Below are positions 10,951-43,632 of a stretch of 64,000 bases of DNA, one piece after another. The DNA is from an uncultured Gammaproteobacteria bacterium (GTDB lineage Bacteria; Patescibacteriota; Microgenomatia; Woykebacterales; RBG-16-39-9b), in NCBI GenBank assembly GCA_965231125.1, contig OZ246414.1:81739-145738 (forward strand). Reading direction: 5' to 3'. Position numbers and translations under genes: made by a program. The notes beneath the pieces were generated by a model. It was not told the origin of the DNA. It saw only the letters and a program-made list of their open reading frames with translations, and did no database searches. Within the stretch, counting starts at the first letter, position 1; each line of letters begins with the position of its first letter.

Positions 10951-10958
10951 CTAATATT

Positions 10959-11762: not shown

Positions 11763-11845
11763 ATATTTTTATGATACTACTAAATTTGCGCTTTTCCAAG
11801 AGCCGTTGAATTTAACCAGCCTTTTTGTTAGAATTTGCACACTCT

Positions 11846-12025: not shown

Positions 12026-12035
12026 GCTTTATCCT

Positions 12036-12704: not shown

Positions 12705-12749
12705 AAATATAGGTACACAAAAACCCACCTTTTAAGTGGGTTTTTGTGG

Positions 12750-13112: not shown

Positions 13113-13145
13113 ATGCTAGCCACTAGACTCTAGCGACTAGGATTC

Positions 13146-27539: not shown

Positions 27540-27568
27540 TTGACAAATAAACTCGGCATCTATAAAAT
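27540..27568 (+). promoter_or_regulatory. TTGACA-N17-TAAAAT promoter, -10 ends 7 nt before the ATG (leaderless-type)
   Basis: TTGACA 27540-27545, TAAAAT 27563-27568, ATG 27576, no SD. Confidence 0.55.
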
Positions 27569-27575
27569 TGAATTA

Positions 27576-29270
27576 ATGTCTCTGCCCAAAAGATTAATTT
27601 TAATCTTTACTGTAATTTTAATTGCGATTTCCTTTTTTAGCTTAATTCCCCTAACGCAAGCCGCCTCTTCGGCTAGCAAACCTCAGAATAATCAACCGGT
27701 AAGTTCTAATAAAATCCAACCGATACCGGCTTCTTCAAACACAAATTTTCAGTACATTCCGACACCAAATGGAAATTACCAAAACCAAGAAGTAGCCCTT
27801 GGACCTGTTGGCGATTGGTTTGCTAATCGATTTCACGACGCAATCACCTTTTTCAGTGACCCTCTAGCTCCAATAGTAAAAGCGGCTCTCTTCTGGACTC
27901 AAGACGCTGCCTACCAACAGGCGGAAGGTTGTCCTTTTGAGGATGCCCAGTGCCATAATGATCAACGCCAACAATACCTTGCCGGAACTGATATTGCCCA
28001 CCTTTCTCACCCTGGAGCGCTGGATTACGCTTCCACCCTTTTGAGTAGTAGTTTAGATCTTCCGGTCCCCCTCGACTCAAGTCAATACTTCGCCTCGATT
28101 AATCCTTTTAGCCAGGCCCATGCATCCGGGGTTGGGGACCTCGCTCAAGACCCCATCCTTCACGTCTGGCAAAGAGTCCGAAATGTTGCCTACGCTGCCA
28201 GTGCGGTGATAATGATAATTTTGGGCTTTATGATAATGCTGCGTTGGAAACTAGACCCCCGAACCTCTGTGACAATTGCAAATTCCCTGCCCCGAATAAT
28301 TGTTGCTTTACTTTTAATTACCTTTAGCCTGGCTATTGCCGGTTTAATGATTGACCTCGCCAGAATAGTCACCAACCTTGCCACTGATTTGATTCCAATT
28401 ACGCTGCGCGGGGCGATGGGGTTAGCAGTTCTCGGTTTTTTTGCAGTGGGATCTTTGGTCCTGCTTTTTACTGCTGGCAGTACTATTGCTGCGGGCCCGG
28501 CTGGCCTCAGTATCGCCTTCATTACAGTTCTTCTGCTGTCGTTGATTTTGGTGATAATAATACTAGTTGTCTTCATTGTCCTTATTTATAAAATCTTAAT
28601 GCGCTATATAACCTTCATCGTTTTGACAATTTTTGCGCCTTTCTTTTTCTTAATTGGGGCCATTCCGGGGCTGGAAGGCGTAACCGCCAGCTGGTTTAAA
28701 CGCCAAATTGCCGCCCTTCTGGCAATACCGGCCATTGCCCTGATGGTTAATCTTTCCTTTTGGATTGGTTTTTCTGGTGCTGGCAATCTACCCAATCCCT
28801 GGCAGACAGGACCGTTACCAGTTGGTATCGTTGGAAATATTTTAAACTGGACAATTCTTTCCCCGATTGTCGGGCTTGGACTTTTCTTCTTCGCCACAAA
28901 AATGCCGGATATTATTGATGAGATGTTGCAAGTTAAACCTCTCGGTGCCAGAGCCGGAATCGGCCCCGGTGCTATACTCGGCGCCCCGATCGCTGCCTTT
29001 GGAACGCTCGGAACTGTTAACAGAGGTTTTCGAACCTTCCAACAAGGAGGTATGCTTTACGGCGCTTTACAAAATGATTCCCTTCTTGGCCGCTTATACC
29101 GACCTGTGGCACGTTTTGGTAGTTCTTTCCGTAAAAACCCAAAACCAGCCTTTCCACCTGCAGCTGGTGACGCGTGGGGTCAGGGTCTAAGAGATTTTGA
29201 ACGAAGCCGACAGGCTCAAGGACAACCTAGACAGGAAGGTGAACCACCCGACAGACCCCCAGGGACATAG
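27576..29270 (+). CDS. polytopic membrane protein, VirB6/TrbL-like (type IV secretion channel component analogue)
   Basis: 564 aa from MSLPKRLILIF. Signal/TM, an extracellular region of about 150 aa, then about 7 TM segments and a Pro/Gly/Arg-rich tail. Assignment rests on architecture and context only. Confidence 0.5.
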   Translation: MSLPKRLILIFTVILIAISFFSLIPLTQAASSASKPQNNQPVSSNKIQPIPASSNTNFQYIPTPNGNYQNQEVALGPVGDWFANRFHDAITFFSDPLAPIVKAALFWTQDAAYQQAEGCPFEDAQCHNDQRQQYLAGTDIAHLSHPGALDYASTLLSSSLDLPVPLDSSQYFASINPFSQAHASGVGDLAQDPILHVWQRVRNVAYAASAVIMIILGFMIMLRWKLDPRTSVTIANSLPRIIVALLLITFSLAIAGLMIDLARIVTNLATDLIPITLRGAMGLAVLGFFAVGSLVLLFTAGSTIAAGPAGLSIAFITVLLLSLILVIIILVVFIVLIYKILMRYITFIVLTIFAPFFFLIGAIPGLEGVTASWFKRQIAALLAIPAIALMVNLSFWIGFSGAGNLPNPWQTGPLPVGIVGNILNWTILSPIVGLGLFFFATKMPDIIDEMLQVKPLGARAGIGPGAILGAPIAAFGTLGTVNRGFRTFQQGGMLYGALQNDSLLGRLYRPVARFGSSFRKNPKPAFPPAAGDAWGQGLRDFERSRQAQGQPRQEGEPPDRPPGT

Positions 29271-29353
29271 CTTCGCCAGCAATACCACTAGTTGCACCAT
29301 CCTGATATAATTCAAGTCACGGGAAATACTGACCTGACGCTAAAGGAGAGGTT

Positions 29354-29542
29354 ATGGTAAAAATAATATCCTTCCTATTAGGTCTCCAACGAGGTGGTTT
29401 ACTTTGGTCCCTGCTGGCTCAGCCTGATGGAGTTCTTCGCAGGTTAGCCAAATCGCTTCTGCGAATTGGTAGTTTTCGAAGAAAACGACAGATACCAGCA
29501 ATACCGCCAGACCCTTCACAGACACGCAGGATCCGAAACTAG
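29354..29542 (+). CDS. possible small basic protein (62 aa)
   Basis: AAAGGAGAGG SD 2-3 nt from the ATG and an extended -10 TGaTATAAT at 29312-29320. No homology recognised, so it could be non-coding. Confidence 0.3.
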   Translation: MVKIISFLLGLQRGGLLWSLLAQPDGVLRRLAKSLLRIGSFRRKRQIPAIPPDPSQTRRIRN

Positions 29543-29603
29543 GCAAAAGAAAAGGGCCGGTTCGTACATTAAGCATTTCTGCTTATTGCACTTACCGGCC
29601 CTT
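29543..29603 (-). terminator. terminator of the 1111-aa gene
   Basis: On the minus strand, aagggccggt / accggccctt 10-bp stem (32-nt loop with inner agca/tgct stem) followed by ttcttttg. Confidence 0.5.
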
Positions 29604-29609: not shown

Positions 29610-32600
29610 CTAAGCGGCTACAATCACAAATCCGCTATTGGGTTCTGGCACTGCGCTCGTAACTAGGTTGTTGTGGCCCATATAGACCATCTTGATGTAC
29701 CTGATGTAACGCTGCTTCTCCTCCTCTCCTATGTTCCTAATCGCTTCCCGTAGAACGTTATTGATTTGGTCCCAGCGATATTTGTCGACGATCATTTCCG
29801 CAAGCTTCATAGAGTATCGGGAGTCAATTTTTGCCCAGCGGGCAATAGTGACAGTCAGGCGATCAACGTCCATCTCCCTCATCGCCTTGCCTCTCTGGAC
29901 TCCATCTTGCTCTTTGAACCTAGAGAGCCACCAACTATTACCCTTTAGGCTCTTGGCGCTTTCCTTAACGAACTCGAGTTCGTCTGTCTCACTCCAGTGA
30001 CCAAGCTCCCGCGCCCTGGCTTTACCGAGACTGTTGTCGAACACTCGGTTCCACCAAACCCATTCCCCATCTCGAACAAATTTGGACTCTGACTCAGCAT
30101 CGTCCCCGATTCGGAAGGGGTAACCCTCGCTGATCCAGGAACCGTAGGTGCCTCCGGAGAAAGCGTGGGCCCGACCCAAAAGGGTGAGCTCCATCTCCCT
30201 CTCTTCCTGGTAAGCGATCGCTGGTCTGCGCAGATCCCAAATCATTCGCTCCATACCGATCCGGCGACCACCAGGAAGCCCGAGATCGAATCTGCCCTTC
30301 GGAATTACGATGGTGGGTAGGCCTTCGGTGTTCCGCCGGACTACGGGGACCACCTGCTGCACCCGGTTAGTCATCGCTTCTTGCAAAGCGTACTGAACCC
30401 TAGCCCGCTTTGGCTCCTCGGGCTGGTGAGCCCACATTGCGTACATGAAGTTACGCGCTGCAGTGGCGTTGTCGTAGTTCACCCGAATGAAGCTATCATA
30501 GCCGTACGTATTTGGGTTGGACAAGCGCACGTTAAGCACCGCCAACGCATTCATCTGACCTAGAATCGCCTCGTTCTGCAGCCAAACGGTGATAGGGTCT
30601 CGGACGGCAAACTCGATGGTACGGGTCCAATCGTCCTCGTCTCGGTAGTTGCGTACCCTGCTGGTGAACTCCTTAACTAGCGTGTCAAAGTCGGGCATCG
30701 CCCCATCACCAGCCGCCGAGTTTAGCCCTCGCTCGCGCTTGAGCTGATCCAAGGCGACTGCCATTGCCTCGGCGTACAAAGTTGCCTGAGCACCGTCGTG
30801 AGGCATCTTCTGCCAGGGTTCCTTGAAGAACCAGGCCCAGTCAAGTAGCGAGCGACGAAGCTCAACCCTTTCCTGGGACACCTCCACGAAACGCTCAAAT
30901 ATCTCGTTTCCGAGAACGTACGCTTCCCTTTCGTCCCGAGTCGGTTCTTTGATCTCCGAGAAGACAGCCTGCCATTCCTCATGAACAAGCTTGTCCGGTA
31001 TCTCTTCTGGACTAGGGATCGGCGCAAAAGCCTCCCCCCGATGCAGTTTGCCCAGAAGGTGGGCCTGGAACCGAGCGCACCGATGCAGAATCATGTACCG
31101 CCGGTCGCAGGTATAATCGATGCTCTCCCACTCACCACCGAAGTTGTTCTGGACATACCGAGCTACGTCCGCATCTTCCATATTCCAACCCTCACGTTTG
31201 GTCCGCATAGAGCGGGCCATCTGCCAGAATTGAATACGGTGCAGACGCTTTCTGCGTCGCTCGATATTTTCCGCCCTGTAGCGGAAGGTGGAGTGATCCA
31301 CCACTGGTTCCCAGCTACCGTAGGAAGGCTGGTAAACTAGCTTCCCTGTCTCCTTATCAACCTTGGATTTACCAGGACGGTATACCCAAGTCACGGTGGA
31401 TGGTTGCTCCACGTACACCGCGAGCTGCACGAGCTCCTTGAGAGCCTGTGCCTGGCTGACTGGATCCGAGGTTTGCGCCCCAAAAATATCCGCCAGAAGC
31501 CAAGGCTCGTTCATCTGCTCGCTTGGATACGAACGGTCCATGTTTTGGTCCACGAAGCTATCCTGATCGCGGAGCCAACGTGCCCACCATTTCTTTAGGG
31601 CTTTGCGACCCTTTGTCTTTTCGAGCTCTATCATCTCTTCTTCGGTGGGTATGCGGAATCCGCTAACTACCTCACCAGTTTTAGGATCGCGTTTCTGCTT
31701 CCGACGGACCGTTTCTTCGAAGTATTTCCACGTCGCCCCGTAACCGAAGTACTCGGTTCCATCCTCATCCGTATAGTAGAGGATTTTCTCCGAACACACT
31801 TTGTGAGCGAGCATGGTGCGGCCTTTTATGTTCAGGTCGCCCACGTCGATTTCGTACTTCTCAGTGTGCGGATTGTAGTGCAGGCCTTCGGGAAATTCCT
31901 GAAAGACCCCTTCACGAACGTTTGCACCATTGCGGTAATACTCCGCTTCCACGCGGCTGCGGAGTGCCTCTTTTTCAGCTTCAGACAGCTCTTCGAGCTC
32001 CCCGGTTTCGGGGTTCTCCACGAAGTAATACCACTGATCTGGTTCCTTCGGGCGAAGCTTCAGCCGAAGCGCGCGGCGGTAGACGTTGTCTTTCTCCCGC
32101 CATTCATCCATTGGTGCGTTGGGTTTGTGCGGTGGAGGGACTTTATTCAACCCTTCGTTGTTCACTGGAAGGTCTCCAGCTCCAACAGCAGGGTAGAACA
32201 CTCGATAGCGAGTAAAGTCCTCTCTCTTCGCGATATCCTCCGCGTGCAACTTGCGCATAACTTCCAGCCGGGAAGAGCCAGGGTTCTTTTTGAGAGCCCG
32301 ACGCATCCGGTGGTAGCTACGCGACACACGCCGAATTTCCCGGTGGTACATCCAGTTAGGATAGCGTCCACCGGGACCAATGTCTTGACGAACTCTAGCG
32401 TGGTTCAGCTCGGGCGAAAGAACGAACATGTTCGTGTCGATACGAACCTGCCCAAGAGAAACCTCAGAGTTCTCTATTTCTTGTTGAAGTTTCTGTACTT
32501 CTTCCCACATGTGCTTTTGTTTTACGGTGTCCGAGATTCCAAACGAGAGAGTGCTGATGAGAAACGGGTTTTTTCCCTTACGCTCAATAGCGTAGCATAG

Positions 32601-32945
32601 AATCGGTTCCCGCTCTCCCATTGGGAATTCGGGCTTTCCGTCTCTGCCAACCCGCCATACCCCGTCCCTTGGTACAACGACTCGCTCCTTAGGCTTGGCT
32701 GTAACCACTTCCATGAAGAAGCGGCGGCCACCCCTCTGCCCGTTGATCTGGAAACCTTGTTCCGAATACTGCGTCTCAGCCAGAGCTTTGAGCTCCTGCT
32801 CTAGCGATGGGAGACCAGCGTATGCCCCCGATCCATATTCGGCTGGGGTTATTACCAGATCCGGTATTCTACCGAACCTAGTTCCGGGAAGAGCTTCCTC
32901 GAACTCTTCGCCATAACCGTCACCGTCCCCATTACCATTTGTCAT
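29610..32945 (-). CDS. large GC-rich orphan protein (1111 aa, no recognisable domains)
   Basis: Uninterrupted ORF. Best start is ATG 32945 (MTNGNGDGDGYGEEF) with GAGGAGGA 8 nt upstream. No signal peptide or TM. Arg/Glu/Trp-rich. Confidence 0.7.
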   Translation of the reverse strand: MTNGNGDGDGYGEEFEEALPGTRFGRIPDLVITPAEYGSGAYAGLPSLEQELKALAETQYSEQGFQINGQRGGRRFFMEVVTAKPKERVVVPRDGVWRVGRDGKPEFPMGEREPILCYAIERKGKNPFLISTLSFGISDTVKQKHMWEEVQKLQQEIENSEVSLGQVRIDTNMFVLSPELNHARVRQDIGPGGRYPNWMYHREIRRVSRSYHRMRRALKKNPGSSRLEVMRKLHAEDIAKREDFTRYRVFYPAVGAGDLPVNNEGLNKVPPPHKPNAPMDEWREKDNVYRRALRLKLRPKEPDQWYYFVENPETGELEELSEAEKEALRSRVEAEYYRNGANVREGVFQEFPEGLHYNPHTEKYEIDVGDLNIKGRTMLAHKVCSEKILYYTDEDGTEYFGYGATWKYFEETVRRKQKRDPKTGEVVSGFRIPTEEEMIELEKTKGRKALKKWWARWLRDQDSFVDQNMDRSYPSEQMNEPWLLADIFGAQTSDPVSQAQALKELVQLAVYVEQPSTVTWVYRPGKSKVDKETGKLVYQPSYGSWEPVVDHSTFRYRAENIERRRKRLHRIQFWQMARSMRTKREGWNMEDADVARYVQNNFGGEWESIDYTCDRRYMILHRCARFQAHLLGKLHRGEAFAPIPSPEEIPDKLVHEEWQAVFSEIKEPTRDEREAYVLGNEIFERFVEVSQERVELRRSLLDWAWFFKEPWQKMPHDGAQATLYAEAMAVALDQLKRERGLNSAAGDGAMPDFDTLVKEFTSRVRNYRDEDDWTRTIEFAVRDPITVWLQNEAILGQMNALAVLNVRLSNPNTYGYDSFIRVNYDNATAARNFMYAMWAHQPEEPKRARVQYALQEAMTNRVQQVVPVVRRNTEGLPTIVIPKGRFDLGLPGGRRIGMERMIWDLRRPAIAYQEEREMELTLLGRAHAFSGGTYGSWISEGYPFRIGDDAESESKFVRDGEWVWWNRVFDNSLGKARARELGHWSETDELEFVKESAKSLKGNSWWLSRFKEQDGVQRGKAMREMDVDRLTVTIARWAKIDSRYSMKLAEMIVDKYRWDQINNVLREAIRNIGEEEKQRYIRYIKMVYMGHNNLVTSAVPEPNSGFVIVAA

Positions 32946-33086
32946 TTGTGTTTCCTCCTCGCTGTTGAACCACCTCGACTTAGTCGAGGGTGCTGACCGG
33001 CAAACTTTCTTTGTGAGAACTGTTTCCCACTTTGGTGTTTGCTGGATCAGCAGCAACACCAAGGGGCGGCCGAAGGCCAGTTTTAA

Positions 33087-33113
33087 ATTATAAGACGCGG
33101 GACATATGTCCAA
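33087..33113 (-). promoter_or_regulatory. candidate promoter (TTGGAC-N15-TATAAT) overlapping palindrome ggacatatgtcc
   Basis: Minus-strand TATAAT is the reverse complement of 33087-33092. TTGGAC is the reverse complement of 33108-33113. The spacer is short (15 nt). Confidence 0.3.
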
Positions 33114-33204
33114 AACACTAGAATCTTACATCCTAAATCTGACATCCATCCGTCCCTCGGTGTTACCTATACTAAGGAGGGGTCCTGGTTTTCACCGGGA
33201 CTTC

Positions 33205-33233
33205 GACTTGTCTAACGACAAGTCTTGTTTTTT
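33205..33233 (+). terminator. plus-strand terminator-like hairpin with no obvious upstream plus-strand gene
   Basis: gacttgtc-taac-gacaagtc perfect 8-bp stem followed by ttgtttttt. A second hairpin plus T-rich tract lies at 33260-33290. Confidence 0.45.
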
Positions 33234-33336
33234 GCTTGTTACCTCAATTTTTCGGCGTACTACAGGTTTAATCCTGTAGTTCTTTTGATCTTTATTCGTT
33301 TTTTAAGGTGCACATTAGCTTTTCGAAAATAGATCG

Positions 33337-33399
33337 CTCCGTAACCAAATCCAAGTGATTTGGGTACTCTCGCGTTCTGTGCTTTAAAAAAGCTAAGGG
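33337..33399. repeat. right copy of the inverted repeat (33-mer plus extended imperfect arm)
   Basis: ctccgtaaccaaatccaagtgatttgggtactc (33337-33369) is the reverse complement of 26465-26497 with 1 mismatch. The arm continues ...gttctgtgct..agctaaggg, matching 26427-26457. Confidence 0.65.
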
Positions 33400-33817
33400 C
33401 TCTGGGTGACAAATTTCTTATCAACCAGAGCCCACCTTCGGGGTCCTATGAAGGGACACCTCAACTCGGAGGTGGCTCTGGATTATTTAGTTTAATTTTA
33501 AGTTCGCCCTTACTCATTTTTTCTAGCCTCTACTGACTGGCCGAATTTTAGCATAACTTAGCTTAAATGTCAACTATAAGTCATTTTGTAACTTCGAAAC
33601 CTGCGAGCTCTTGGTTTCTCAGGTACTCTCACGTCTCGCGCTAGGCGTCTTAACGCCTAGCTAAGAGCGCATCGGTTTTTATTCGCGCAGTACGATACAG
33701 TTTGACTCGGTTGCTTTTAGCCTCCCCATGAGCCATAATAATCCCTACAATAGTCGTAAAAAGCTATTTTTCGGCGAAGGATCAGCGAAGCGAGCCGAAG
33801 TATTGTAACCAAAAGTT

Positions 33818-34342
33818 ATGCAACAGCATCCTGTCCCACAGAACATAACAAGTTTTGAATTTAAGCTAGTTGGGTTTCTGACGATTAAGCAATTCGGCTA
33901 TCTTGCCGCTGCCGGAATTTTTTCCTTTGTCTTTTTCATTTCTCCAATACCGACCCTTTTAAAAACTATCGTTATTACTCCTTTTGCCGCAGCCGGACTT
34001 GCCTTTGCTTTTGCTAACATAAACGGTCTCTCGTTTGACAAGTGGATCGTTGCCTTTATTCACTCGGTCTATTCCCCGTCAAGAAGGGTTTGGCACAAAG
34101 TGCCGAAGGAGATAAGTTTTCTCGCGCCAAATTTTTCCTACTATCTCAAGCGGCCGCCTACCCAACAAAAAATTGCCAGTGGCGATCGGACTCGTTTAGA
34201 AAAATATCTTGCGCAGTTGCGAAACCAGCGTTTTAATTCTAATCTCGATGTTTTTGAGGAAATGCGCCTTTCAAAAATTGACTTTAGGGCGACTGTTCCT
34301 CACTTTACAACCGTAGACTCCCAAAGGGATGAAGGCGACTGA
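33818..34342 (+). CDS. PrgI-like (VirB3 analogue) membrane protein
   Basis: 174 aa. The N-terminus HPVPQNITSFEFKLVGFLTIKQFGYLAAAG followed by two TM segments is the pattern I associate with PrgI family proteins of Gram-positive-type T4SS. Confidence 0.55.
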   Translation: MQQHPVPQNITSFEFKLVGFLTIKQFGYLAAAGIFSFVFFISPIPTLLKTIVITPFAAAGLAFAFANINGLSFDKWIVAFIHSVYSPSRRVWHKVPKEISFLAPNFSYYLKRPPTQQKIASGDRTRLEKYLAQLRNQRFNSNLDVFEEMRLSKIDFRATVPHFTTVDSQRDEGD

Positions 34343-35825
34343 GATGGCAGAACCCAACCAAGAAAAGACAGCGGCATATTTTCCTGAGATACCGACAGAT
34401 TTGCCGGAGAACGTCCCGTCTTATCCTGGCAAAAATCTACCCCGCGCCTATAAACCGGCGGCACCCTCCCGCGACGTTACTCACGGGCTGTTGGAGGGGA
34501 CGCGGAGTTTTGCCTCGGAAGTAAATTTTGATCCAGTTACAACTTTAAACCTGCCGGATAAAAACGTCTACGTGCGGCCGGTTAAAAACCTAAAATCCCG
34601 GGATATCACTCCATTACCTCTCAACGGCCCATTAAGTTTGCCTTCCAAAGGGGAGAAGATTTTTGATCTCTCGGCCGACTTTCAACGTCAGATTGAAGCG
34701 CGACTTTCTTATATTATGAATCAGTATGAAACCAAATCTAACCCTAACTTACCTGATTTAGCTCCACCACCTAACCTTAGTCCGGAGACTCCCAGTCCGG
34801 CGGAAACTGCTCCTGCCGCTGCCCAACCTGGGCAAGCTGTCCAGCGCCCGGTTATCAGCCCAGAAATTAGCGCGGCGGCCCAAGTCCCTCAAAGAGCACT
34901 GGAGACGCCACCTGCTCAACCCCAGAGTCCGGTTCCATATCAATCAGCCAATCGGTTACCTTCTGACCAAGAAGCTCTGCTTGATATTCTAACTAGACTA
35001 GAGAGGCAAATCCGAGAGTTGGAGATTCAAAAAAACGCCGCCCAAGCAAGGGTTGTTGAGCTAACCAACAAATATCAATCGCAAATTTTGGCGCTGGCAA
35101 AAAACCAAGAAGGTTTTAGCTCTGTTATTGAGCAGCTGAAAAATCAACTTGTCGAGGAGCAAAAAAAGAAACTGGCCGGGGACGCCATGGTCAACACTAT
35201 TAAAACAGAATCCCAAGTCGAAATTCAAAGACTAAAGATTGAAAGAGACTCTCTTCTTTCCCAGCTAAAAGAGGCCCAGACCAAAATTTCTGATCTACAA
35301 CAGACCGCGTCTAAATTCCCAGTTTCAGAAATACAAGTATCCGAACTTAAGGCCCGCCTGGCCCAGGTGGAGAGGGAAAGATCTGATTCCGAGGAAAAGA
35401 TAATGAAGTTGCAAAGTTTGGTGGACGATTTAAGGACGGGTTCCCGTGTGGCTGAGGAAGAAAGACACGTTATCACTGCTCAGGCGGTACCAGTAGAGTC
35501 TCTGACCACGGCAAAAATCGTGTCCCCGGCCCCAGCGTTTGGAAAAATGGCGCCTCCACTTACCACCATTCCTAACGTTGTTAACGGTATCATCAAAGAT
35601 CGCGCTGGCCTGCTCTTAACTGATGTCATAATTGTCGTAAAAGATGAGGCGAGTAACCCTGTAAGGGCCTTAAAATCGAATAAAATTGGTCAATTTGCTA
35701 TCTCAACACCACTACCAACCGGCACTTACACTATGGAACTTGAAAAAGAGGGTCAAGAATTTGATCTTGTCCAAATAAAATTGGAAGGAAAAGTAATGCC
35801 ACCCGTGGAAATAAAATCTCGGTAA
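34329..35825 (+). CDS. Pro-rich / coiled-coil protein with C-terminal carboxypeptidase-regulatory-like beta-sandwich
   Basis: 498 aa. Pro-rich spacer, coiled coil of about 150 aa, C-terminal VNGIIKDRAGLLLTDVIIVVKD..GQFAISTPLPTGTYTMELEKEG. Alternative start at ATG 34344. Confidence 0.5.
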   Translation: MKATEMAEPNQEKTAAYFPEIPTDLPENVPSYPGKNLPRAYKPAAPSRDVTHGLLEGTRSFASEVNFDPVTTLNLPDKNVYVRPVKNLKSRDITPLPLNGPLSLPSKGEKIFDLSADFQRQIEARLSYIMNQYETKSNPNLPDLAPPPNLSPETPSPAETAPAAAQPGQAVQRPVISPEISAAAQVPQRALETPPAQPQSPVPYQSANRLPSDQEALLDILTRLERQIRELEIQKNAAQARVVELTNKYQSQILALAKNQEGFSSVIEQLKNQLVEEQKKKLAGDAMVNTIKTESQVEIQRLKIERDSLLSQLKEAQTKISDLQQTASKFPVSEIQVSELKARLAQVERERSDSEEKIMKLQSLVDDLRTGSRVAEEERHVITAQAVPVESLTTAKIVSPAPAFGKMAPPLTTIPNVVNGIIKDRAGLLLTDVIIVVKDEASNPVRALKSNKIGQFAISTPLPTGTYTMELEKEGQEFDLVQIKLEGKVMPPVEIKSR

Positions 35826-35847: not shown

Positions 35848-36564
35848 ATGGCCAACAAAAAAATTTACACAACTCAAGAACATTTAGATATCGATGACGT
35901 TAGAGACAATTTGGCCGTTCTAAAAAACGGGGAGGCGGTCGCGATTATTCAGACAAACGCGATCAACTTTGACCTTTTAAGTGAAAGGGAGCAGGACGCA
36001 ATGATCTTTGCCTACGCTGGCTTGCTAAACTCCCTCACGTTTCCGATACAAGTTTTGGTGAGATCAAAACGTTTAGATCTTTCCAATTATTTACAGTATC
36101 TTGCTCTTTACCGGCGGCAAGCCAAAAACCCACTTTTGGTTGCCCAAATGGATAAGTACGCCTCTTTTATTAAGGATTTAGTTGCAAGGAATGAGGTTTT
36201 GGATAAGAGATTTTATATAGTTGTGCCTTATCTAGCTATTAGCCTTACTCAATTAAAAAGTCTAGGCGGCGGCCTTTTAGGTAAAAAACCGCGAGGCACA
36301 AATCGCTGGAGCACCATTGAGAAAGCTAAAGTTAATCTTGAGCCAAAAATCGAACACATCGTTAAACAGCTTGCTCGGATTGGAATTAAAGCCAAACAGC
36401 TTACCACTGAAGAATTAGTCGAGCTTTTTTACGACTACTACAACCCCGAGGTAGCCAGGGAACAGAAAGCAGCTCTTTCCACCTCGGAGTACACAACTCC
36501 AATTGTGGAACCGGCGGTAAGCCCAATTTTAGAGCAGTCACAAGGAGACACGAATGCAACTTAA
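35848..36564 (+). CDS. hypothetical T4SS-associated protein (238 aa)
   Basis: The ORF overlaps the VirB4-like gene start by 11 nt. No family recognised with confidence. Confidence 0.45.
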   Translation: MANKKIYTTQEHLDIDDVRDNLAVLKNGEAVAIIQTNAINFDLLSEREQDAMIFAYAGLLNSLTFPIQVLVRSKRLDLSNYLQYLALYRRQAKNPLLVAQMDKYASFIKDLVARNEVLDKRFYIVVPYLAISLTQLKSLGGGLLGKKPRGTNRWSTIEKAKVNLEPKIEHIVKQLARIGIKAKQLTTEELVELFYDYYNPEVAREQKAALSTSEYTTPIVEPAVSPILEQSQGDTNAT

Positions 36565-38428
36565 TCCTTTTAAAAAAAGGGAAAAGGTTGACCCGGTAGA
36601 AGCAGAACTGGCTCAAACCCGAGCAAAAGTGGCCAATGTTCTCGGTAGGGGAATGACAGATGTAAAGGACGTGATTGCTCCACCGGCCATTGAAATCGAC
36701 TTTGATTACTTAAGAATTGGTGAGTTGTACTTCCGCACATTATTTATCACTGGCTACCCTCGCTTTGTCGGTGCTAATTGGCTGGCTCAAATTATAAATT
36801 TTGACCATACCCTTGATATTTCCTTCTACTACTACCCCGTTGAATCGAAGGGAATACTTGACGATCTGCGGCGAAAAATCGCCGAGATGGAGGCTACGAT
36901 TGAAAGCGACCTAGAGGCAGGTAGAGTCTTAGATCCTGGGGTCCGAATTGCTTTAGAGGATGCTCAAGCCCTCCAGGAACAGCTAACCGCTGGTATCGAA
37001 CGCTTCTTCCAGTTTTCTTTCTACATAACCATACCCGCTTACTCCTTAGAAGAACTCAACTCTGTTACCAAACAAGTAGAAGCGGCCCTTGGGTCTCTTT
37101 TGGTCGTCTCCAAGCACGCGACGCTACAACAAGAACAGGCTTTTCAATCTGTCTTACCTACCTTCACCGATAAACTTTTGGTGACTCGGAACATGGACAC
37201 GACTTCTTTGGCTACAACTTTTCCTTTTGTTTCTAGCGAGCTAACTGCTAATGAAGGGGTTATGTACGGCATTAACGAACACAATGGATCTTTGGTCATT
37301 TTTGACCGCTTTAGCCTGGAAAATGCAAACTGCGTCGTCTTTGCAAAATCCGGAGCCGGAAAAAGCTACTTAGTTAAACTGGAGACTTTGCGTCAATTAA
37401 TGTTTGGCACTGAAGTTTTAGTTATCGATCCAGAAAACGAGTATCAAGCCTTAGCCGAGGCGATTGGAGGAGAATATATGGAATTTAAGGCCGAGTCCGG
37501 AATAAAAATAAACCCCTTCGATCTTTCCGGTATCTACCAGCAAGGAGAAAACGAACTAGGTTTAAAAATTTTGGCTCTTCACTCCCTTTTCCGAATTATG
37601 ATGGGTCAGCTAACGCCAATGGAAGATGCTGTTTTAGACAGAGCCTTGGTTGCTACCTATAAATTAAAGGGTATAACTCCAGACCCGGCCACCCAAACAA
37701 GACAGCCGCCGATTATGGAGGACCTTTACAATATCTTACTTAACATGGCGGAGCCGGAAGCTAAGGGAATGGCAACTCGTCTGGAAAAATTCATTCGGGG
37801 TTCTTTATCCGGTGTATTTAATGAGCAAAGCAATATTAACCTTAGAAATACCTTTACTGTTTTTTCTATCCGTGATATGGAGGACGAACTGCGCCCAATT
37901 GCAATGTTCATCGTCTTAGACTTTATCTGGACGAGGATCAAAAGAAATCTTAAAAAGCGGGTTCTTGTGGTAGACGAGGCTTGGTATTTAATGAAGTACC
38001 CTGACTCAGCTGCTTTCATGTACTCCATCGCAAAAAGAGCCCGTAAATACTTTTTAGGGGTGACAACAATAACTCAAGACGTCGAAGACTTTCTTTCTGG
38101 AGATTACGGTAAGGCAATTGTTACTAACTCATCTATGCAATTTCTATTAAAGCAGTCACCGGCGGCGATAGATGCAGTTACTGATATTTTTTATTTGTCC
38201 GAGGGGGAGAGAAATTTACTGCTTTCTGCCGAGATCGGCGAGGGCCTTTTCTTTGCTGGCCCTAACCACGTGGCTATTAGGGTTCAGGCTGCACCACACG
38301 AACACGGGTTAATTACTTCAAACCCAGCTGAGCTTGTTGAGAGTAACCAGCCCTCAAATATTTCCGCGCCAAACAGCCCCCCGACAGAAGAAACTACTTA
38401 TCCGGGGTCTACCCCAAACCAACTCTAA
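36554..38428 (+). CDS. VirB4/TraC/PrgJ-like type IV secretion ATPase
   Basis: 624 aa. Walker A FAKSGAGKSY, Walker B RVLVVDEAW, and a VirB4-like N-terminal domain (FRTLFITGYPRFVGANWL). Confidence 0.85.
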   Translation: MQLNPFKKREKVDPVEAELAQTRAKVANVLGRGMTDVKDVIAPPAIEIDFDYLRIGELYFRTLFITGYPRFVGANWLAQIINFDHTLDISFYYYPVESKGILDDLRRKIAEMEATIESDLEAGRVLDPGVRIALEDAQALQEQLTAGIERFFQFSFYITIPAYSLEELNSVTKQVEAALGSLLVVSKHATLQQEQAFQSVLPTFTDKLLVTRNMDTTSLATTFPFVSSELTANEGVMYGINEHNGSLVIFDRFSLENANCVVFAKSGAGKSYLVKLETLRQLMFGTEVLVIDPENEYQALAEAIGGEYMEFKAESGIKINPFDLSGIYQQGENELGLKILALHSLFRIMMGQLTPMEDAVLDRALVATYKLKGITPDPATQTRQPPIMEDLYNILLNMAEPEAKGMATRLEKFIRGSLSGVFNEQSNINLRNTFTVFSIRDMEDELRPIAMFIVLDFIWTRIKRNLKKRVLVVDEAWYLMKYPDSAAFMYSIAKRARKYFLGVTTITQDVEDFLSGDYGKAIVTNSSMQFLLKQSPAAIDAVTDIFYLSEGERNLLLSAEIGEGLFFAGPNHVAIRVQAAPHEHGLITSNPAELVESNQPSNISAPNSPPTEETTYPGSTPNQL

Positions 38429-39528
38429 ACTTTAACTTCGACAGTTCCTTCATTAACTTTAAAAATTTTACTCTCCTTTAAAATCCACTCAGGGAAGATA
38501 GTCTCCGAAGTGGCGGTGATAATACTTTGCTGCTTTGGCAAAGCCTTAAGTATATGTTCTTGGTTAATTTTATCAAACTCACTTAAAACATCGTCCAAAA
38601 GAAGGGTAGGGTCGGTGCCGAAACTCTCTTTAATAAAGGCTAGCTCGACCAATTTTAAGGCTAAGGTGGCAAGTCTTTTCTCACCCCGAGATCCAAAGAT
38701 ATTAATATCTTTTTCCAGAAGCACGTCCGACTTTAAAGTTTCAAACACTATTTTGAAATCGTCTCGGTGGGGACCAAAAGACGTTACCATTTTTTCGATA
38801 TCGGTTTCTTTGTTTTTTACTAGTTGCAGGCTAATTAGCCTTTTTATTTCACTGGCGTCTTTAACTTTTTCTTTGAACGGCGCGTAATCTATGCGTATAG
38901 TCGCGTTTGCAATTTTTTCACTGGTTTTTTTCAGAAGCTTGTTTATCTCTCCAACAAACGCGAGCCGCCTCTCCCAAATGAAGCTTCCTAGGCTGGCAAT
39001 CTGTTTGTCCCAAGGCAAAAGGTCTTGGGGTTTACCTGCCTTTATAAGCCAGAGGAGTTTATTGCGGTTTTTCATGGCTCTAAAGTACCGGCTCAAAGAG
39101 TAGAGATAGTTTTTATCCGTCACCGAAAGGGTCTGGTCTAAAAACCGTCGTCTTTTTTCCGGACCGCCGGAAACAATATCCAAGCTTTCTGGTGAGAACA
39201 GGACTACCGGAAAGACTCCAATTACGGAGGCTCTGTTTTTGGGTTGATTGTTAACAGAAACTTTTTTCATCGTTTTGTTGATAAGAATTTTAATTTCGTT
39301 ATGCGCGGCGTTACCCCTAACTTGGGCTTCTTCCGCAGCCCAATTAATTAGATCCGCGTCGATATTCGTCCGAAACGATTTCGTGGTGGCTAAAAGATAA
39401 ATGGCTTCAATTATATTTGTCTTACCTTGAGCGTTATTACCGACAAGCAGATTAATTTTCTGAGAAAGAGGTAGTTTCAAATTTGAAATGTTTCTAAAAT
39501 TTTTTAAATAGAGGTTTTCTAACCACAT
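38425..39528 (-). CDS. recF: DNA replication/repair protein RecF
   Basis: 367 aa: LKNFRN...GNNAQGKTNIIEAIYLL and signature LLLDDVLSEFD. Confidence 0.9.
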   Translation of the reverse strand: MWLENLYLKNFRNISNLKLPLSQKINLLVGNNAQGKTNIIEAIYLLATTKSFRTNIDADLINWAAEEAQVRGNAAHNEIKILINKTMKKVSVNNQPKNRASVIGVFPVVLFSPESLDIVSGGPEKRRRFLDQTLSVTDKNYLYSLSRYFRAMKNRNKLLWLIKAGKPQDLLPWDKQIASLGSFIWERRLAFVGEINKLLKKTSEKIANATIRIDYAPFKEKVKDASEIKRLISLQLVKNKETDIEKMVTSFGPHRDDFKIVFETLKSDVLLEKDINIFGSRGEKRLATLALKLVELAFIKESFGTDPTLLLDDVLSEFDKINQEHILKALPKQQSIITATSETIFPEWILKESKIFKVNEGTVEVKV

Positions 39529-40631
39529 TAGTTCTGGGTTCGAACCGGCATAACAAGATACATAAATGAGGGGTCTTCGGCAGACTTTATCAGTGCTGGT
39601 TTATCGGGGCCGGCGAATTGAACCTCAAACTTTTCGCCGGTTAGTACTCCTACGCCCTCGGCGAGAAAACGACTGTTAAAAGATATTTTGATATCCTGTC
39701 CCTTAACTTTAGCCTGTAGACTTACCCTTCCTTCCCCAATTTGCGCTGAAGAAGCGCTTATAGATTGCTCTTTCTCGCTAAAGAGTAGGTGAACAACATT
39801 TCCGATATCTTTTGCAAAGGTGGTCGCCGTTTTTAGATTACTAAGAAAATCCTCTTTTTCTAAGAGAGCACTCGCGATAAATTGATCTGGAATTATTTGT
39901 TCAAACTTAGGGAATTCTCCCGCAAGTAGTTTTGTAAATACTTCTGTATGGGCTACTTCAAAGTAGGCTTGATTATCGCCCCGCGATATACCTATATTTA
40001 TAAACTCATCTTCTGATTCATCAAGAATTTTGCTTGACTCCATAAGTACACGCGCCGGAACAATTACTTCTTCCTCGTCCAGAAGGACTCCCATATCTTT
40101 TTTGGCGAGCCGATAACCGTCGGTTGCAACTAGCTGAGTGTTTTCTTTATTGGTCCTAAACAAGACTCCTGTTAGGATTGGTCGCCCTTCGTCTAAACTT
40201 GCAGCTACCCCTACTTGTTTTACCGAAGACAAGAGAGATTTTTTTTTAATTTTTTTGCTTTTTGATTTCTCTGCTTCCGGTGGGGTGGGGAACTCGCTGG
40301 CGGAAATTGTCGGCACGCTCGCGTGCGTTTTGGCGGTGTTGATCACTAAGCTTTCTTTTTCTAATTCTAATGATATCTTCTCGTCCGCTACACTAGCCAA
40401 AAACTCAATTAAAGTTCTTGCTGGAGCGGTTACTGCCCCTTCATTTAAAATCTTCGCTGGGACCCAGGTTTTGATTGTTGTTTCTAAATCCGTACCAATT
40501 AATCTCAACCCCCCAGATTCTGTTTCCATGAGGATATTACCTAAGACCGGAGTTGTCGGTTTAACCGTCACTGCTTTACCAACAAAACTGACCGCTTTGT
40601 AAATATCATCTTTGTTGATCTGTAATTTCAT
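39528..40631 (-). CDS. dnaN: DNA polymerase III beta sliding clamp
   Basis: Start at ATG 40631 (MKLQINKDDIYKAV). Three-domain clamp length. PILGNILMET, TDGYRLA. Confidence 0.9.
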   Translation of the reverse strand: MKLQINKDDIYKAVSFVGKAVTVKPTTPVLGNILMETESGGLRLIGTDLETTIKTWVPAKILNEGAVTAPARTLIEFLASVADEKISLELEKESLVINTAKTHASVPTISASEFPTPPEAEKSKSKKIKKKSLLSSVKQVGVAASLDEGRPILTGVLFRTNKENTQLVATDGYRLAKKDMGVLLDEEEVIVPARVLMESSKILDESEDEFINIGISRGDNQAYFEVAHTEVFTKLLAGEFPKFEQIIPDQFIASALLEKEDFLSNLKTATTFAKDIGNVVHLLFSEKEQSISASSAQIGEGRVSLQAKVKGQDIKISFNSRFLAEGVGVLTGEKFEVQFAGPDKPALIKSAEDPSFMYLVMPVRTQN

Positions 40632-40765
40632 ATATAGTATATATAATATAATAGTAGTATTAGGCGGTGTCAAAATGTCAGTAACTAGATGCAGGTTACA
40701 ATGACGTTAGAGGGCAGCAAAGGACACACTTCTCTGTGCAAAACATGTGAGCAGAAGGTGAGTAA
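40632..40765. other. dnaA-dnaN intergenic region with AT-rich tract (candidate origin/DUE)
   Basis: tatatagtatatataatataatagtagtatta at 40631-40662. I could not find clear consensus DnaA boxes. Confidence 0.25.
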
Positions 40766-42160
40766 CTACACCCCGTTTATGGAGTTTGTGAAAACACGCG
40801 CCCTTATCTGAGTGATTAATCCACGAGTTTTTGACGAGCCGTCAAGCAGGCGTTTGATTTTTTCCACAGAGTAAATCACACTGGTGTGGTCGGACTTGTT
40901 TAACAAGGAGGCGATTTTTTGCAGCGGTAGAGTTAGATCCATTCTCAGAATGTACATAGCTATCTGGCGAGGGAACACAATGTCAGACCGGCGGCTCGCG
41001 CTTTTCAAATCCTTTATCGAAAGCGAGAAGTATTTAGCCACCTGTAAAATAACAAAATCTGAGTTTGTCTGCGCGGTCTTCTCAAGACGGGTCAACTGAA
41101 GAACTTGCTGGACTAAATCTTCTGAGACAGGCTGGTTAGAAAATTTAGAATAAGTTAGCAGTCTAATGAAACCACCTTCAAGATCACGGATATTATTAAC
41201 GTAGACCTGCGCCAAAAGGCGGATTATTTTAGTCGGAAGCTGGACGCTTCGATCTTTACATTTTTGATAAAGTACAGCTTCGCGAAGTTCGAACTCTGGA
41301 GCGGCGATGTCGGCTATCATCCCGGCCTCAAAACGACTTTTTAATCTTTCGGCAAGACGGCCAATTAAAGCCGGCTGTCGATCGGCGGCCAAAACTACCT
41401 GTTTTCTCGCCGCGAATAGAGCATTGAAAGTGTGGAAGACCTCCTCTTGGGTAGATTCCCGTCCTGATAAAAACTGGACATCGTCGATCACGAGTAGATC
41501 AGCACTGCGGTATTTAGCTCTAAAATTAGTAGTCGTCTTGGTTTGAATGGCAGCAACTAAATCATTAGTAAATTCTTCACAGGTAGAATAGAAGACTTTA
41601 AGTTTGGGATTTTTCGCTAAAGCCTCCTGGGCAATAGCCTGGATGAGATGAGTCTTACCAACCCCAACCCCGCCGTAAATGAAAAGGGGGTTGTAAGGCT
41701 TGTCACCAAGTTCGGAGACCGCTTTAGCGGCAGCATAAGCGAGTTGGTTACTTTTGCCGGAGACGAAAGCGTTGAAGGAAAAGGCCGGGTTAAGCCGTGC
41801 CTTTGTTAAAGCTTCCTGTAATTCATCAACGTCGGTATTAGTGAAAAGCGCTGGCAATGAGTAAGCTTCCCGTACCCTTCTGAGTTTAGATTTGTTGGTA
41901 ACCTCTTTTTCCAAAGGGCGAACGCTAAAAACGATGCTAATATTTTTGGCAGTAGCTTTGTCTAAAATAGATTTAATTTGGCCATGGTAGCGAGATTCCA
42001 GCCAGTTTTTTACGTAGGAAGAGCTGCAGCCAATTTCTACCAAATTTTCGTCCAAAGAAACTAAGGTGGTCTTTCCTTTAAACCAAGTCTGAAAATTTGC
42101 AGCCGATAAATCCATCTGCAATTGAGCTAAGGTTGATTCCCAAAGATTATTTTTATCCAT
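40766..42160 (-). CDS. dnaA: chromosomal replication initiator DnaA
   Basis: Start at ATG 42160 (MDKNNLWESTLAQLQ). AAA+ GGVGVGKTHL, LLVIDDVQFL, C-terminal DNA-binding KSASRRSDIVFPRQIAMY. Confidence 0.95.
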   Translation of the reverse strand: MDKNNLWESTLAQLQMDLSAANFQTWFKGKTTLVSLDENLVEIGCSSSYVKNWLESRYHGQIKSILDKATAKNISIVFSVRPLEKEVTNKSKLRRVREAYSLPALFTNTDVDELQEALTKARLNPAFSFNAFVSGKSNQLAYAAAKAVSELGDKPYNPLFIYGGVGVGKTHLIQAIAQEALAKNPKLKVFYSTCEEFTNDLVAAIQTKTTTNFRAKYRSADLLVIDDVQFLSGRESTQEEVFHTFNALFAARKQVVLAADRQPALIGRLAERLKSRFEAGMIADIAAPEFELREAVLYQKCKDRSVQLPTKIIRLLAQVYVNNIRDLEGGFIRLLTYSKFSNQPVSEDLVQQVLQLTRLEKTAQTNSDFVILQVAKYFSLSIKDLKSASRRSDIVFPRQIAMYILRMDLTLPLQKIASLLNKSDHTSVIYSVEKIKRLLDGSSKTRGLITQIRARVFTNSINGV

Positions 42161-42392
42161 AAGATGGCAATTAATGACGTCCTCCCCGAGCCAAGTCGGG
42201 GTTGCCGACGTTTTCTCGCCCCGATAAATCGGGCCTCGAAAATAAATCACGCGAGCGTGATGGGCCGAGTTAAGGACTCGGTAGGCAGGGGGTAGATCTT
42301 TCAAAAGAGGTAAAACTATATTAGGTAAAAGTACCGAGACGGTCAAGAAGGACATACTACTACCTTTCTGTATCAGTAGATTCTGGGCGCAT

Positions 42393-42421
42393 TTGACATT
42401 GGTAGAGTCCTTATCTATACT
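42393..42421 (+). promoter_or_regulatory. TTGACA-N17-TATACT promoter 6 nt upstream of the rpmH start
   Basis: TTGACA 42393-42398, TATACT 42416-42421, GTG 42428. Confidence 0.5.
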
Positions 42422-42427
42422 ACTCTC

Positions 42428-42565
42428 GTGCCAAAAAGAACGTACCAACCAAAAAAATTAAAAAGAGCCAAAAAACACGGCTTTCGGGCTAGGGCCAAAA
42501 CAAAAGGCGGACAACAAGTCCTTAAAAGAAGAATATTAAAGGGAAGAAAACGACTTTCGGTTTAA
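42428..42565 (+). CDS. rpmH: 50S ribosomal protein L34 (absent from the ORF track because it is under 60 aa)
   Basis: GTG start. Translation (M)[44 protein letters not shown]. Stop TAA 42563-42565 overlaps the rnpA ATG. Confidence 0.9.
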
Positions 42566-42909
42566 TGCTCCCGAAAAGAAATAGATTAAATTTAAAAAAA
42601 GACAGGTTTTTAAAAGGGAGTACTCAATTTGCGAGCCCCTTTTTTAAGTTGCTTTTAAAGAAAAGCGCAGGAGACGGACCAAAGATCGGGTTTATTGTCA
42701 GTGGTAAAGTAGGCAAGGCGGCTTCTCGAAACCGGGTTAAAAGACTACTGTCCGAGGCAGCGGCAAGTAAATTAGAAATGATTTCCGAAGACGCTCTCCT
42801 CATTTTTATCGCTTTTCCTGCTTCTGGCAAAGCCGGTCTGGAGGAAATAAAAACTAGTGTTGATGATACCCTCTCTAAAGCAAAAATACTCAAAGGAGGA
42901 AGTCTATAA
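42565..42909 (+). CDS. rnpA: ribonuclease P protein component
   Basis: 114 aa, LPKRNRL...FIVSGKVGKAASRNRVKR. Canonical rpmH-rnpA-yidC order. Confidence 0.85.
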   Translation: MLPKRNRLNLKKDRFLKGSTQFASPFFKLLLKKSAGDGPKIGFIVSGKVGKAASRNRVKRLLSEAAASKLEMISEDALLIFIAFPASGKAGLEEIKTSVDDTLSKAKILKGGSL

Positions 42910-43632
42910 ATGGTAAATTTTTTTGTAGACCTCTTGATTAAACTTAATAACATAACGGGAAACTTAGGCGTAACGCTAATTGTTGTTGGAATTGTCAGCA
43001 GAGCAATCTTCTACCCGTTCTTAAAATCAGCCTACAAACAAAGTCAGCTCCAAAGAGAATTAAAGTCGAAAATGGATGAGCTCAAGAAAAAGCACAAAGA
43101 TAAATCCAGGCTTGCTAAAGAGCAAATGAGGCTTTATCGCGAAATGGGGATTAACCCTGTCGCTGGTTGCCTTTCTCTACCAATTCAGCTCGTCGTGCTC
43201 TACCTGATATTTGCTGGGTTGCGGCGGATTCTGGGCTCTGGGGTGGAAACCCATTTTTTAATTTGGGATTTAGCAAAGCCAGATACATATAAATTTGCGA
43301 GTATACCGTTTGCTATACCGGGCATTCTTATCGTTCTTACGGCGGTAGCGACTTTTTTCCAGACGAAAATGGCGACCCCGACTGCCCCAACACCGCCTCC
43401 CAAAAACCAGAAAGATGGTAGTGGGAATGTAGATTTTACCGAAGCATTAGCCGCCTCGCAAGGCCAAATGGTATTCTTATTACCAATTGTAATCTTATTC
43501 AGCGGTATTAGCTTTCCCGCTGGACTCGCGCTCTATTGGTTTGCGGGAAGTTTCTTTGGTATAATCCAACAATATTATATCGCTGGCTGGGGAGGTTTAA
43601 CTCCATGGGTAAAGATGTTGAAAAAAGCCTAG
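42910..43632 (+). CDS. yidC: membrane protein insertase YidC (short form)
   Basis: 240 aa: LQRELKSKMDELKKKHKDK..QMRLYREMGINP..GC. Confidence 0.85.
   Translation: MVNFFVDLLIKLNNITGNLGVTLIVVGIVSRAIFYPFLKSAYKQSQLQRELKSKMDELKKKHKDKSRLAKEQMRLYREMGINPVAGCLSLPIQLVVLYLIFAGLRRILGSGVETHFLIWDLAKPDTYKFASIPFAIPGILIVLTAVATFFQTKMATPTAPTPPPKNQKDGSGNVDFTEALAASQGQMVFLLPIVILFSGISFPAGLALYWFAGSFFGIIQQYYIAGWGGLTPWVKMLKKA

Follow-up and report, generated by a model that had tools for sequence, protein, structure and literature searches.

What does a protein of 1111 amino acids (aa) without recognizable relatives do in the middle of a type IV secretion system (T4SS) locus? The question is raised by a 64,000-nt stretch of contig OZ246414.1 (hereafter the window), which carries a large orphan gene on its minus strand, flanked by T4SS genes. 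The epibiotic life of bacteria of the candidate phyla radiation (CPR) depends on the T4SS, one of a small number of systems for which essentiality has been shown. Its cargo, as well as the route that substrates take without a coupling protein or a relaxase, is a puzzle. The orphan protein is a concrete and testable candidate for T4SS cargo or for the missing cytoplasmic partner in one lineage. Our comparisons show that it belongs to a new, previously undescribed family confined to Woykebacteria-like Microgenomates (Patescibacteria), and that this family is a fixed, vertically inherited part of a chromosomal, origin (ori)-proximal T4SS locus of the mating-pair formation (MPF) FATA type. As to its role, we lean tentatively towards a T4SS cargo whose synthesis could be gated by translation-coupled attenuation.

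An initial annotation of the window, made from the letters alone, had described the gene as its longest open reading frame (ORF), with an ATG start at 32945 preceded by a Shine-Dalgarno (SD) sequence and with a terminator of its own. This description holds: the frame runs from stop to stop over 29610-33113 (minus strand), the runner-up ORF encodes only 737 aa, an AAGGAGG-type SD precedes every gene of the family, and an inverted repeat followed by a T-run on the minus strand lies downstream (Table 1). The product has a calculated mass of 129.6 kDa and an isoelectric point of 6.6. In agreement with what had been noted by eye, it lacks a transmembrane (TM) segment, its maximum 19-aa Kyte-Doolittle-type hydropathy (KD19) being 0.87, and it has no Sec/Tat signal peptide; disorder is predicted for the acidic N-terminus. 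A regular-expression scan detected no Walker A, DEAD, HExxH or YxDD motif and no HxH in the protein, and motifs of reverse transcriptases (RT), RuvC and HNH nucleases, integrases, transposases and relaxases are likewise absent. An AlphaFold (AF2) model reached a mean predicted local distance difference test score (pLDDT) of 79.3 and a predicted template modeling score (pTM) of 0.74, whereas AF2 supplied with a 2-sequence alignment only gave an unusable model (pLDDT 31.6). Comparison of the model with PDB and BFVD returned no meaningful match. The orphan gene is thus predicted to encode a soluble, folded cytoplasmic protein of ∼130 kDa, with a modelled fold that has no known structural relative in these two collections.

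Relatives of the protein are rare. Neither the single sequence nor a family profile matched Pfam, PHROGs, NCBIfam, PADLOC or the PDB sequences, in line with the orphan status originally assigned to it. A word-indexed search of 5.8 billion proteins returned only the orphan protein itself and one relative with 46% identity, and when 1.84 billion cluster representatives were searched exhaustively with an HMMER profile, 28 proteins passed E <= 1e-3; their length is mostly 920-1170 aa, and none has a Pfam or NCBIfam match. Using a 23-sequence family alignment in the word-indexed search, whose index was saturated, added nothing new; pattern scans of genome, metagenome and viral contigs, with narrow patterns and in collections that evidently lack the source contigs, revealed no relative. 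The identical protein is also encoded on one JGI contig, on two Logan contigs and in one NCBI record. The family alignment contains ∼25 invariant residues (H/D/E/R/N/W/Y), and its conserved motifs are concentrated at residues 470-970 (DRxxPxEQ, HWKMxKS, NDxGGxWN, MxHDG, RGLNSAAGDG, VRNYxxE, RDP, NxRL and MW). The acidic N-terminus is poorly conserved throughout the family, and the C-terminal tails (IVAA, PLDVK, FFEINQ, LLPR) are conserved only inside subfamilies. Lack of known relatives could in principle point to a decaying or non-functional ORF that stays open by chance in GC-rich DNA, and nothing else speaks for such an explanation. Every full-length copy is intact (920-1170 aa) and preceded by a consensus promoter and an SD, the motifs are kept despite >50-75% amino-acid divergence, the fold is predicted with confidence and the regulatory leader is conserved, so that we regard a chance ORF as hardly conceivable.

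The position of the gene is as constant as its sequence is variable. The gene order is (dnaA-dnaN-)recF, VirB4, a TraC-like/TrsD gene, a gene for a protein of 400-1035 aa, PrgI/VirB3, a non-coding gap of 0.6-0.8 kb and the orphan gene, which is divergent from PrgI/VirB3 and convergent with a gene for a multi-pass membrane protein (VirB6-like); pilins (PF18895), PMT and M23 genes follow. The same slot is occupied in 12 divergent loci, and the association with VirB4 and a VirB6-like gene supports the T4SS-like setting that had been proposed. The arrangement is common to the relative with 46% identity (L001; L-numbers denote loci that were fetched and compared with the window) and to relatives with 22-27% identity (L006, L008, L091, L092 and L093), the exception being L093, where an extra 371-aa ORF without Pfam match (L093:6251-7366, plus strand) lies between PrgI and the orphan gene. 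Since the slot is kept across genomes whose dnaN products are only 33-57% identical, we argue for vertical inheritance. A constant location near the origin would also fit a lineage-specific cytoplasmic enzyme, or a nucleic-acid- or ligand-binding factor unrelated to secretion, that is retained by inherited gene order. However, the gene lies in the middle of the T4SS genes and not at their edge, even at a dnaN identity down to 33%, and no known enzyme fold or motif was detected; we consider a role of this kind unlikely.

To place the family among related secretion loci, 80 loci of GTDB species representatives were fetched with the VirB4 of the window as query, and the nearest of them belong to Candidatus Woykebacteria and other Microgenomates. 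A hidden Markov model (HMM) of the family, run over the six-frame ORFs of these loci, detected the orphan protein only beside the most similar VirB4 proteins (73-85% identity; L011, L012, L013, L015, L016, L020, L021 and L054), and L019 was added by profile-sequence hhalign with a probability of 90.6%. No homologue was detectable in most of the remaining Microgenomates that share this VirB4 (62-75% identity). Where their genomes carry large ORFs at a comparable place, homology was rejected (hhalign probability < 1%, L019 excepted); several of these ORFs encode M23- or CHAP-domain proteins and are probably VirB1-like hydrolases. In one further locus with a VirB4 of 67% identity, a 908-aa ORF divergent from PrgI fills the same slot (L037:4289-7012, minus strand). 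A promoter of the family type (TTGACT-N14-TGCTATAAT) lies 468 nt upstream of this ORF, the leader is long, the N-terminus of the product is acidic and the G+C content at third codon positions (GC3) is elevated (0.66 vs 0.49). Homology to the family was not detectable (hhalign 0.3%). The ORF may be a homologue diverged beyond recognition or an analogue, and the slot may therefore predate the recognizable family.

Published Patescibacteria T4SS are described, in the parts of the two papers considered here, as MPF-FATA-like and ori-proximal systems without relaxase or coupling protein, which are essential for the epibiotic growth of a Saccharibacterium and for which protein export has been proposed (PMC12102498; PMC10633639). 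The locus in the window resembles these chromosomal loci (Quinonero-Coronel et al. 2025, PMC12102498), including S. epibionticum SEML1_0006-0019 (Wang et al. 2023, PMC10633639), in its VirB4, TrsD/TraC-like, PrgI/VirB3 and VirB6-like genes and several pilins, in the adjacent dnaA-dnaN-recF genes and, as far as those parts go, in lacking a relaxase and a coupling protein. With YidC, dnaA, dnaN and recF beside VirB4, the window is itself origin-proximal, in agreement with the published location of such loci. In contrast to them, the orphan family is confined to the Woykebacteria-like branch, and other Microgenomates have unrelated large ORFs nearby or none. The parts of both papers considered here describe no ∼1000-aa cytoplasmic protein in this slot.

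Sequence comparison showed that the orphan protein diverges faster than both the cytoplasmic parts of the machine and housekeeping proteins. Between the window and L001 it is 46% identical, compared to 81% for VirB4, 77% for TrsD, 65% for PrgI, 61% for recF and 57% for dnaN. In L011, where VirB4 is 85% and dnaN 50% identical to the window, tblastn did not detect the orphan protein; the copy present is of a different subfamily, and overall the subfamilies do not follow the VirB4 tree. As the closest non-identical pair of the family is only 46% identical, synonymous sites are saturated and the ratio of nonsynonymous to synonymous substitution rates cannot be estimated. Divergence at this speed is as expected of a host-facing protein. 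The protein between PrgI and TrsD, in which good conservation among the loci is limited to a CarboxypepD_reg-like domain of ∼100 residues at the C-terminus (55-64% identity), is a second fast-evolving component of the locus.

These rates bear on the alternative that the orphan protein belongs to the T4SS machine itself, as an accessory or structural subunit in the cytoplasm, e.g., a recruiting or gating platform, other than an ATPase, that replaces the missing VirD4-type coupling protein. Strict synteny and a single copy, as for the machine genes, would suit such a subunit, as would the strong conservation of the motifs HDG, RGLNSAAGDG, VRNYxxE, RDP, NxRL and MW and the lack of a recognizable coupling protein in these systems, as described in the part of PMC10633639 that deals with them. 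On the other hand, VirB4 and TrsD, which in this case would be its partners in the cytoplasm, evolve far more slowly. The protein has no P-loop and no detectable counterpart in most of the Microgenomates that share this VirB4, and its gene is transcribed away from the machine operon under its own promoter and putative attenuator (see below). We therefore rate a subunit of the machine as somewhat improbable. A VirD4-type coupling protein itself was rejected, as there is no Walker A motif, no TM anchor and no AAA/TraG Pfam match, and so was a MOB relaxase, with no relaxase Pfam or NCBIfam match in the 28 members and no HxH. Like VirD4 coupling proteins and MOB relaxases, the orphan protein is predicted to be cytoplasmic and is encoded inside a T4SS locus; unlike them, it has neither Walker A/B motifs nor an N-terminal TM segment, lacks a His-triad or catalytic Tyr, and shows no Pfam, NCBIfam or structural similarity to them.

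The gene also stands out by its composition. The GC-richness noted in the initial annotation is real, and its hand counts are exact (38/60 G+C at 30301-30360 versus 19/60 at 14011-14070); 1-kb windows across 30001-33000 have 54-57% GC compared to ∼43% around them. What had been missed is that the GC3 anomaly is a property of the whole family. GC3 of the orphan gene is 0.618 versus 0.403 ± 0.047 for 49 other ORFs of the window (+4.6 standard deviations), and reflects a preference for NNC in two-fold boxes (TTC 0.71 vs 0.26) and for NNG in Lys, Glu and Gln codons. TTA makes up 0.00 of the Leu codons, compared to 0.23 in the other ORFs, and GCC and CCG are not raised. In 12 loci the ORF has a GC3 of 0.50-0.75, compared to 0.39-0.47 elsewhere in the respective locus, and in three loci that were fetched later the value is 0.46-0.66; loci with the excess include L001, L005, L006, L008, L010, L011, L015, L016, L019, L020 and L054. 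The excess ends at the ORF boundaries, the 400-nt leader having a GC content of 0.40-0.48. Codon bias due to high expression was rejected as the cause, because GroEL (57204-58838; GC3 0.39, GAA 0.91, TTT 0.70) and ribosomal protein L25 (46706-47425; GC3 0.37) of the same window do not show it.

Such values, far above those of the host and unlike the codon usage of GroEL or L25, might indicate foreign DNA, i.e., a mobile-element gene or prophage remnant inserted into the T4SS locus, and an enzyme of a novel mobile element had indeed been suggested. The subfamily tree, which disagrees with that of VirB4 as in L011, could be read in the same way. In contrast to this explanation, the gene is not enclosed by direct or inverted repeats (the flanking inverted repeat that had been proposed for a co-occurrence check is absent, the only strong one being the gene's own terminator), and the protein carries no integrase, transposase or relaxase motif. 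Searches by tblastn of 72,556 plasmids and 50,697 phage records found nothing, nor was any relative confirmed when IMG/VR was scanned with a pattern. All 12 loci keep the gene in one slot, the leader is conserved without being GC-rich, and the GC3 excess stops at the ORF edges. As the foreign-looking codon usage has persisted through >50-75% protein divergence in a vertically inherited slot, recent transfer does not explain it; an insertion of foreign DNA is largely refuted, and we regard it as highly improbable. The excess could stem from selection acting on this long mRNA or from GC-biased gene conversion coupled to allelic exchange, the latter being suggested by the discordance between subfamilies and VirB4. 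A persistent GC3 excess that is confined to an ORF and is not a high-expression codon bias is an evolutionary signal of interest in its own right.

How is the gene controlled? A TATAAT at 33092-33087, originally taken as the promoter of a ∼135-nt leader, lacks a −35 element, has no conserved counterpart in L001 and was passed over by our promoter scan. Instead, a sigma-70 promoter with an extended −10 box (general form TTGACA-N14-TGnTAnAAT), which in the window matches 11/12 consensus positions and carries the TG extension, is found exactly once, 337-755 nt 5′ of the start codon, in all 13 loci with enough upstream sequence (13/13), and the same motif also occurs in L091 and L093. This conserved promoter implies a leader of ∼590 nt. 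The 600-nt leader folds far better than shuffled controls (z = −9.9), and a search against Rfam 15 gave only noise-level matches to microRNA and small nucleolar RNA models. Since a long structured RNA is here paired with a large protein, a CRISPR/OMEGA-like RNA-guided nuclease, a retron and a group II intron were also considered, and were rejected as no RT, RuvC or HNH motif, Rfam match or repeat array was found.

The promoter-proximal part of the leader looks like a leader-peptide transcription attenuator, a feature that had escaped the initial annotation. Just 3′ of the promoter, most loci contain a short reading frame (mini-ORF; 16-21 codons). In 10/12 loci, a mini-ORF that starts with ATG, spans 15-23 codons and stops 15-45 nt ahead of a pairing segment termed segment 2 is present, compared to 7.7% in shuffled sequence (nominal P ∼4e-10, which overstates the support as the loci are related). 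Most of the predicted peptides end proline-rich (PEPPP, SPP, GPP, TP), those of L008 and L015 being exceptions; the Ile, Leu and Lys codons further upstream are such as AT-rich sequence typically contains. Segment 1, the 5′ arm of a putative antiterminator, coincides with the 3′ end of the mini-ORF: in a window RNA ending after segment 2, the two segments pair over 11 of 12 bases (−27.6 kcal/mol), and this pairing is part of the minimum-free-energy fold in 11/12 loci (−19 to −46 kcal/mol). Segment 2 can alternatively pair with segment 3 in an intrinsic-terminator-like hairpin (−23.4 kcal/mol in the window), which is followed by a T-rich tail and found in 12/12 loci (−16 to −28 kcal/mol). Its stem shows compensatory pair changes at six positions, e.g., C-G to U-A, and the motif is confined to loci of the family among the 90 fetched loci examined.

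Further elements are conserved downstream. Past the terminator-like hairpin, a conserved and structured leader continues for another 220 to about 400 nt (32990-33385 in the window). It includes the motif G[CT]AC[CT]TT[AT]A[AC]AA, which is exact in 9/14 loci and has 1-2 mismatches in the remaining five, and two hairpins that had been quoted in the initial annotation, one of them as ttggtgttgctg/cagcaaacaccaa. Both are present and conserved with compensatory changes; the first, aligned in 11 loci, alternates between TTGGTG/CACCAA and TTGATG/CATCAA, and the second, just 5′ of the SD, reads CCCCGAC/GTCGGGG in L001. Within 32990-33385 (minus strand), CTTGGTG..CACCAAGGG and CCCCTTGGTG..CACCAAGGGG are hairpins that resemble each other, and their arms could cross-pair. 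The region behind the attenuator may be a second switch. Two Logan assemblies (L003 and L004; SRR6155503 and SRR6155504) both start 413 nt 5′ of the ATG (window ∼33358), so that independent assemblies break at one point within the leader.

Proline-codon leaders are known from the Salmonella mgtA and mgtCBR operons (mgtL and mgtP), and the classical attenuators are those of trp, his and leu. As in these systems, the leader of the orphan gene combines a promoter-proximal short ORF, mutually exclusive hairpins, a terminator with a U-run and consecutive Pro codons at the decisive position. In contrast to them, it consists of three segments with the 3′ end of the mini-ORF itself serving as antiterminator arm, it is followed by ∼400 nt of conserved structured leader without an Rfam match, and it precedes a non-metabolic orphan gene in a CPR host. 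If the leader is a true attenuator, it would be a rare case of ribosome-mediated attenuation in a CPR genome and a handle on nutritional sensing in minimal cells.

Together, these features suggest how a T4SS cargo might be made and used. The protein would be synthesized without a Sec signal, handed to the adjacent T4SS and delivered to a host cell, with its synthesis controlled apart from the machine genes by its own consensus promoter and the ∼590-nt leader. In this leader, the proline-ending mini-ORF would overlap the 5′ arm of an antiterminator that competes with the intrinsic terminator. A ribosome terminating at the end of the mini-ORF, or stalled there on Pro-Pro-Pro, would cover segment 1, allowing the terminator to form and turning the gene off. 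If the leader is untranslated or the ribosome stalls early, e.g., upon amino-acid shortage, segment 1 would be free, the antiterminator could form and transcription would read through into the gene. We infer the export, the direction of the switch and the signal that is sensed.

The cargo interpretation draws on the predicted cytoplasmic location and the lack of a Sec signal, on the separate regulation, on the position of the protein as the fastest-evolving cytoplasmic product of the locus and on the belief that these T4SS export proteins. As expected of a cargo, the gene lies inside the T4SS cluster, between PrgI and the VirB6-like gene, in 12 loci, and the product has neither a Sec/Tat signal nor a TM segment. 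Like T4SS effectors, e.g., those of Dot/Icm and VirB/D4 systems or conjugatively transferred proteins, it is encoded with a T4SS, large, fast-evolving, lineage-specific and without known domains.

Several observations weigh against a cargo. The protein differs from such effectors in having no recognizable T4SS translocation signal, its C-terminal tails being kept only within subfamilies, and no coupling protein (T4CP) that could recruit a substrate is encoded in the locus. Effector repertoires do not typically consist of one copy in a rigidly fixed place, and the ∼25 invariant residues would be just as compatible with an enzyme or a part of the machine. In streamlined CPR genomes, synteny can last without functional linkage. 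Moreover, the direction of the attenuator has been derived solely from geometry, and because the proline codons are at the same time the RNA pairing segment, constraint on the peptide and on the RNA is inseparable. Combined with the remaining observations, the cargo interpretation would make the orphan protein a first candidate for a Patescibacteria T4SS substrate or substrate-handling factor, with a fold not represented in PDB, switched on by a proline-stall attenuator when translation in the epibiont falters, and with a codon usage shaped by a locus-specific selective regime. Such a regime could be, e.g., recurrent allelic exchange with biased gene conversion, or selection at the mRNA level. 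That all these parts hold at once is rather doubtful.

The features of the locus are compiled in Table 1. The VirB6 label rests on position and topology only, as a Pfam scan of this protein gave no match.

Table 1. Coordinates of the orphan gene, its leader elements and the neighboring T4SS genes in the window.
Feature	Position	Strand	Details
Orphan protein coding sequence	29610..32945	−	1111 aa; stop codon included (29613-32945 without stop)
Shine-Dalgarno sequence	32960-32953	−	GAGGAGGA; strong; 7 nt 5′ of the orphan-gene ATG
Terminator of orphan gene	29542..29603	−	24-nt arms, then TTTTCTTTTG; inverted repeat 29552-29603 plus T-run
Conserved sigma-70 promoter, extended −10	33545..33573	−	TTGACA-N14-TGCTAAAAT
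Leader mini-ORF	33461..33517	−	MSKGELKIKLNNPEPPPS; 18 codons + stop
Mini-ORF peptides of other loci			L001 MIGLVRIENLIPEPPPE; L011 MNEAELRIKKLIIPEPPPW; L012 MKQVRLIFNKILMEPPPRR; L010 MKNLIFKLNIIRAQSPPDG; L054 MKNKLIDLDIFAQSPPG; L093 MRSLTIKLNILKAQGPPIR; each followed by a stop codon
Segment 1	33471..33481	−	CCAGAGCCACC; 3′ end of mini-ORF, putative 5′ arm of antiterminator
Intrinsic-terminator-like hairpin	33386..33436	−	segment 2 GGTGGGCTCTGG (33436-33425); segment 3 CCAGAGCCC (33405-33397); tail TTAGCTTTTTT
Leader motif G[CT]AC[CT]TT[AT]A[AC]AA	33311-33300	−	221-379 nt 5′ of start codon among loci
Conserved hairpin	33026..33066	−	CCCCTTGGTG..TGCTG..CAGCA..CACCAAAGTGGG
Hairpin CCTCGAC/GTCGAGG	32973..32989	−	just 5′ of SD
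Multi-pass membrane protein, probably VirB6-like	27540..29270	+	convergent; ORF at same position in all loci
PrgI/VirB3-like gene	33818..34342	+	divergent from orphan gene; PF12666 on identical JGI contig
Protein between PrgI and TrsD	34329-35825	+	498 aa; counterparts in L001, L006, L008, L091, L092
TraC-like/TrsD gene	35848-36564	+	PF26593
VirB4 ATPase	36554-38428	+	PF01935/PF12846/PF19044
Origin-proximal genes	38425-43632		dnaA 40766-42448 (−); YidC 42910-43632; dnaN and recF abut VirB4

Short ORFs of 62-74 aa on both strands of 29352-29576, which the JGI and Logan contigs list as genes, overlap the terminator hairpin of the orphan gene and are probably spurious. Elsewhere in the window, 9361-13610 contains six tRNA genes (four Ser, two Arg) together with tmRNA (12750-13112, minus strand) and SmpB (13146-13610, minus strand), and a 155-aa ORF at 44081-44548 (plus strand) with RVT_3 and RNase H Pfam matches encodes an RNase H-like protein.

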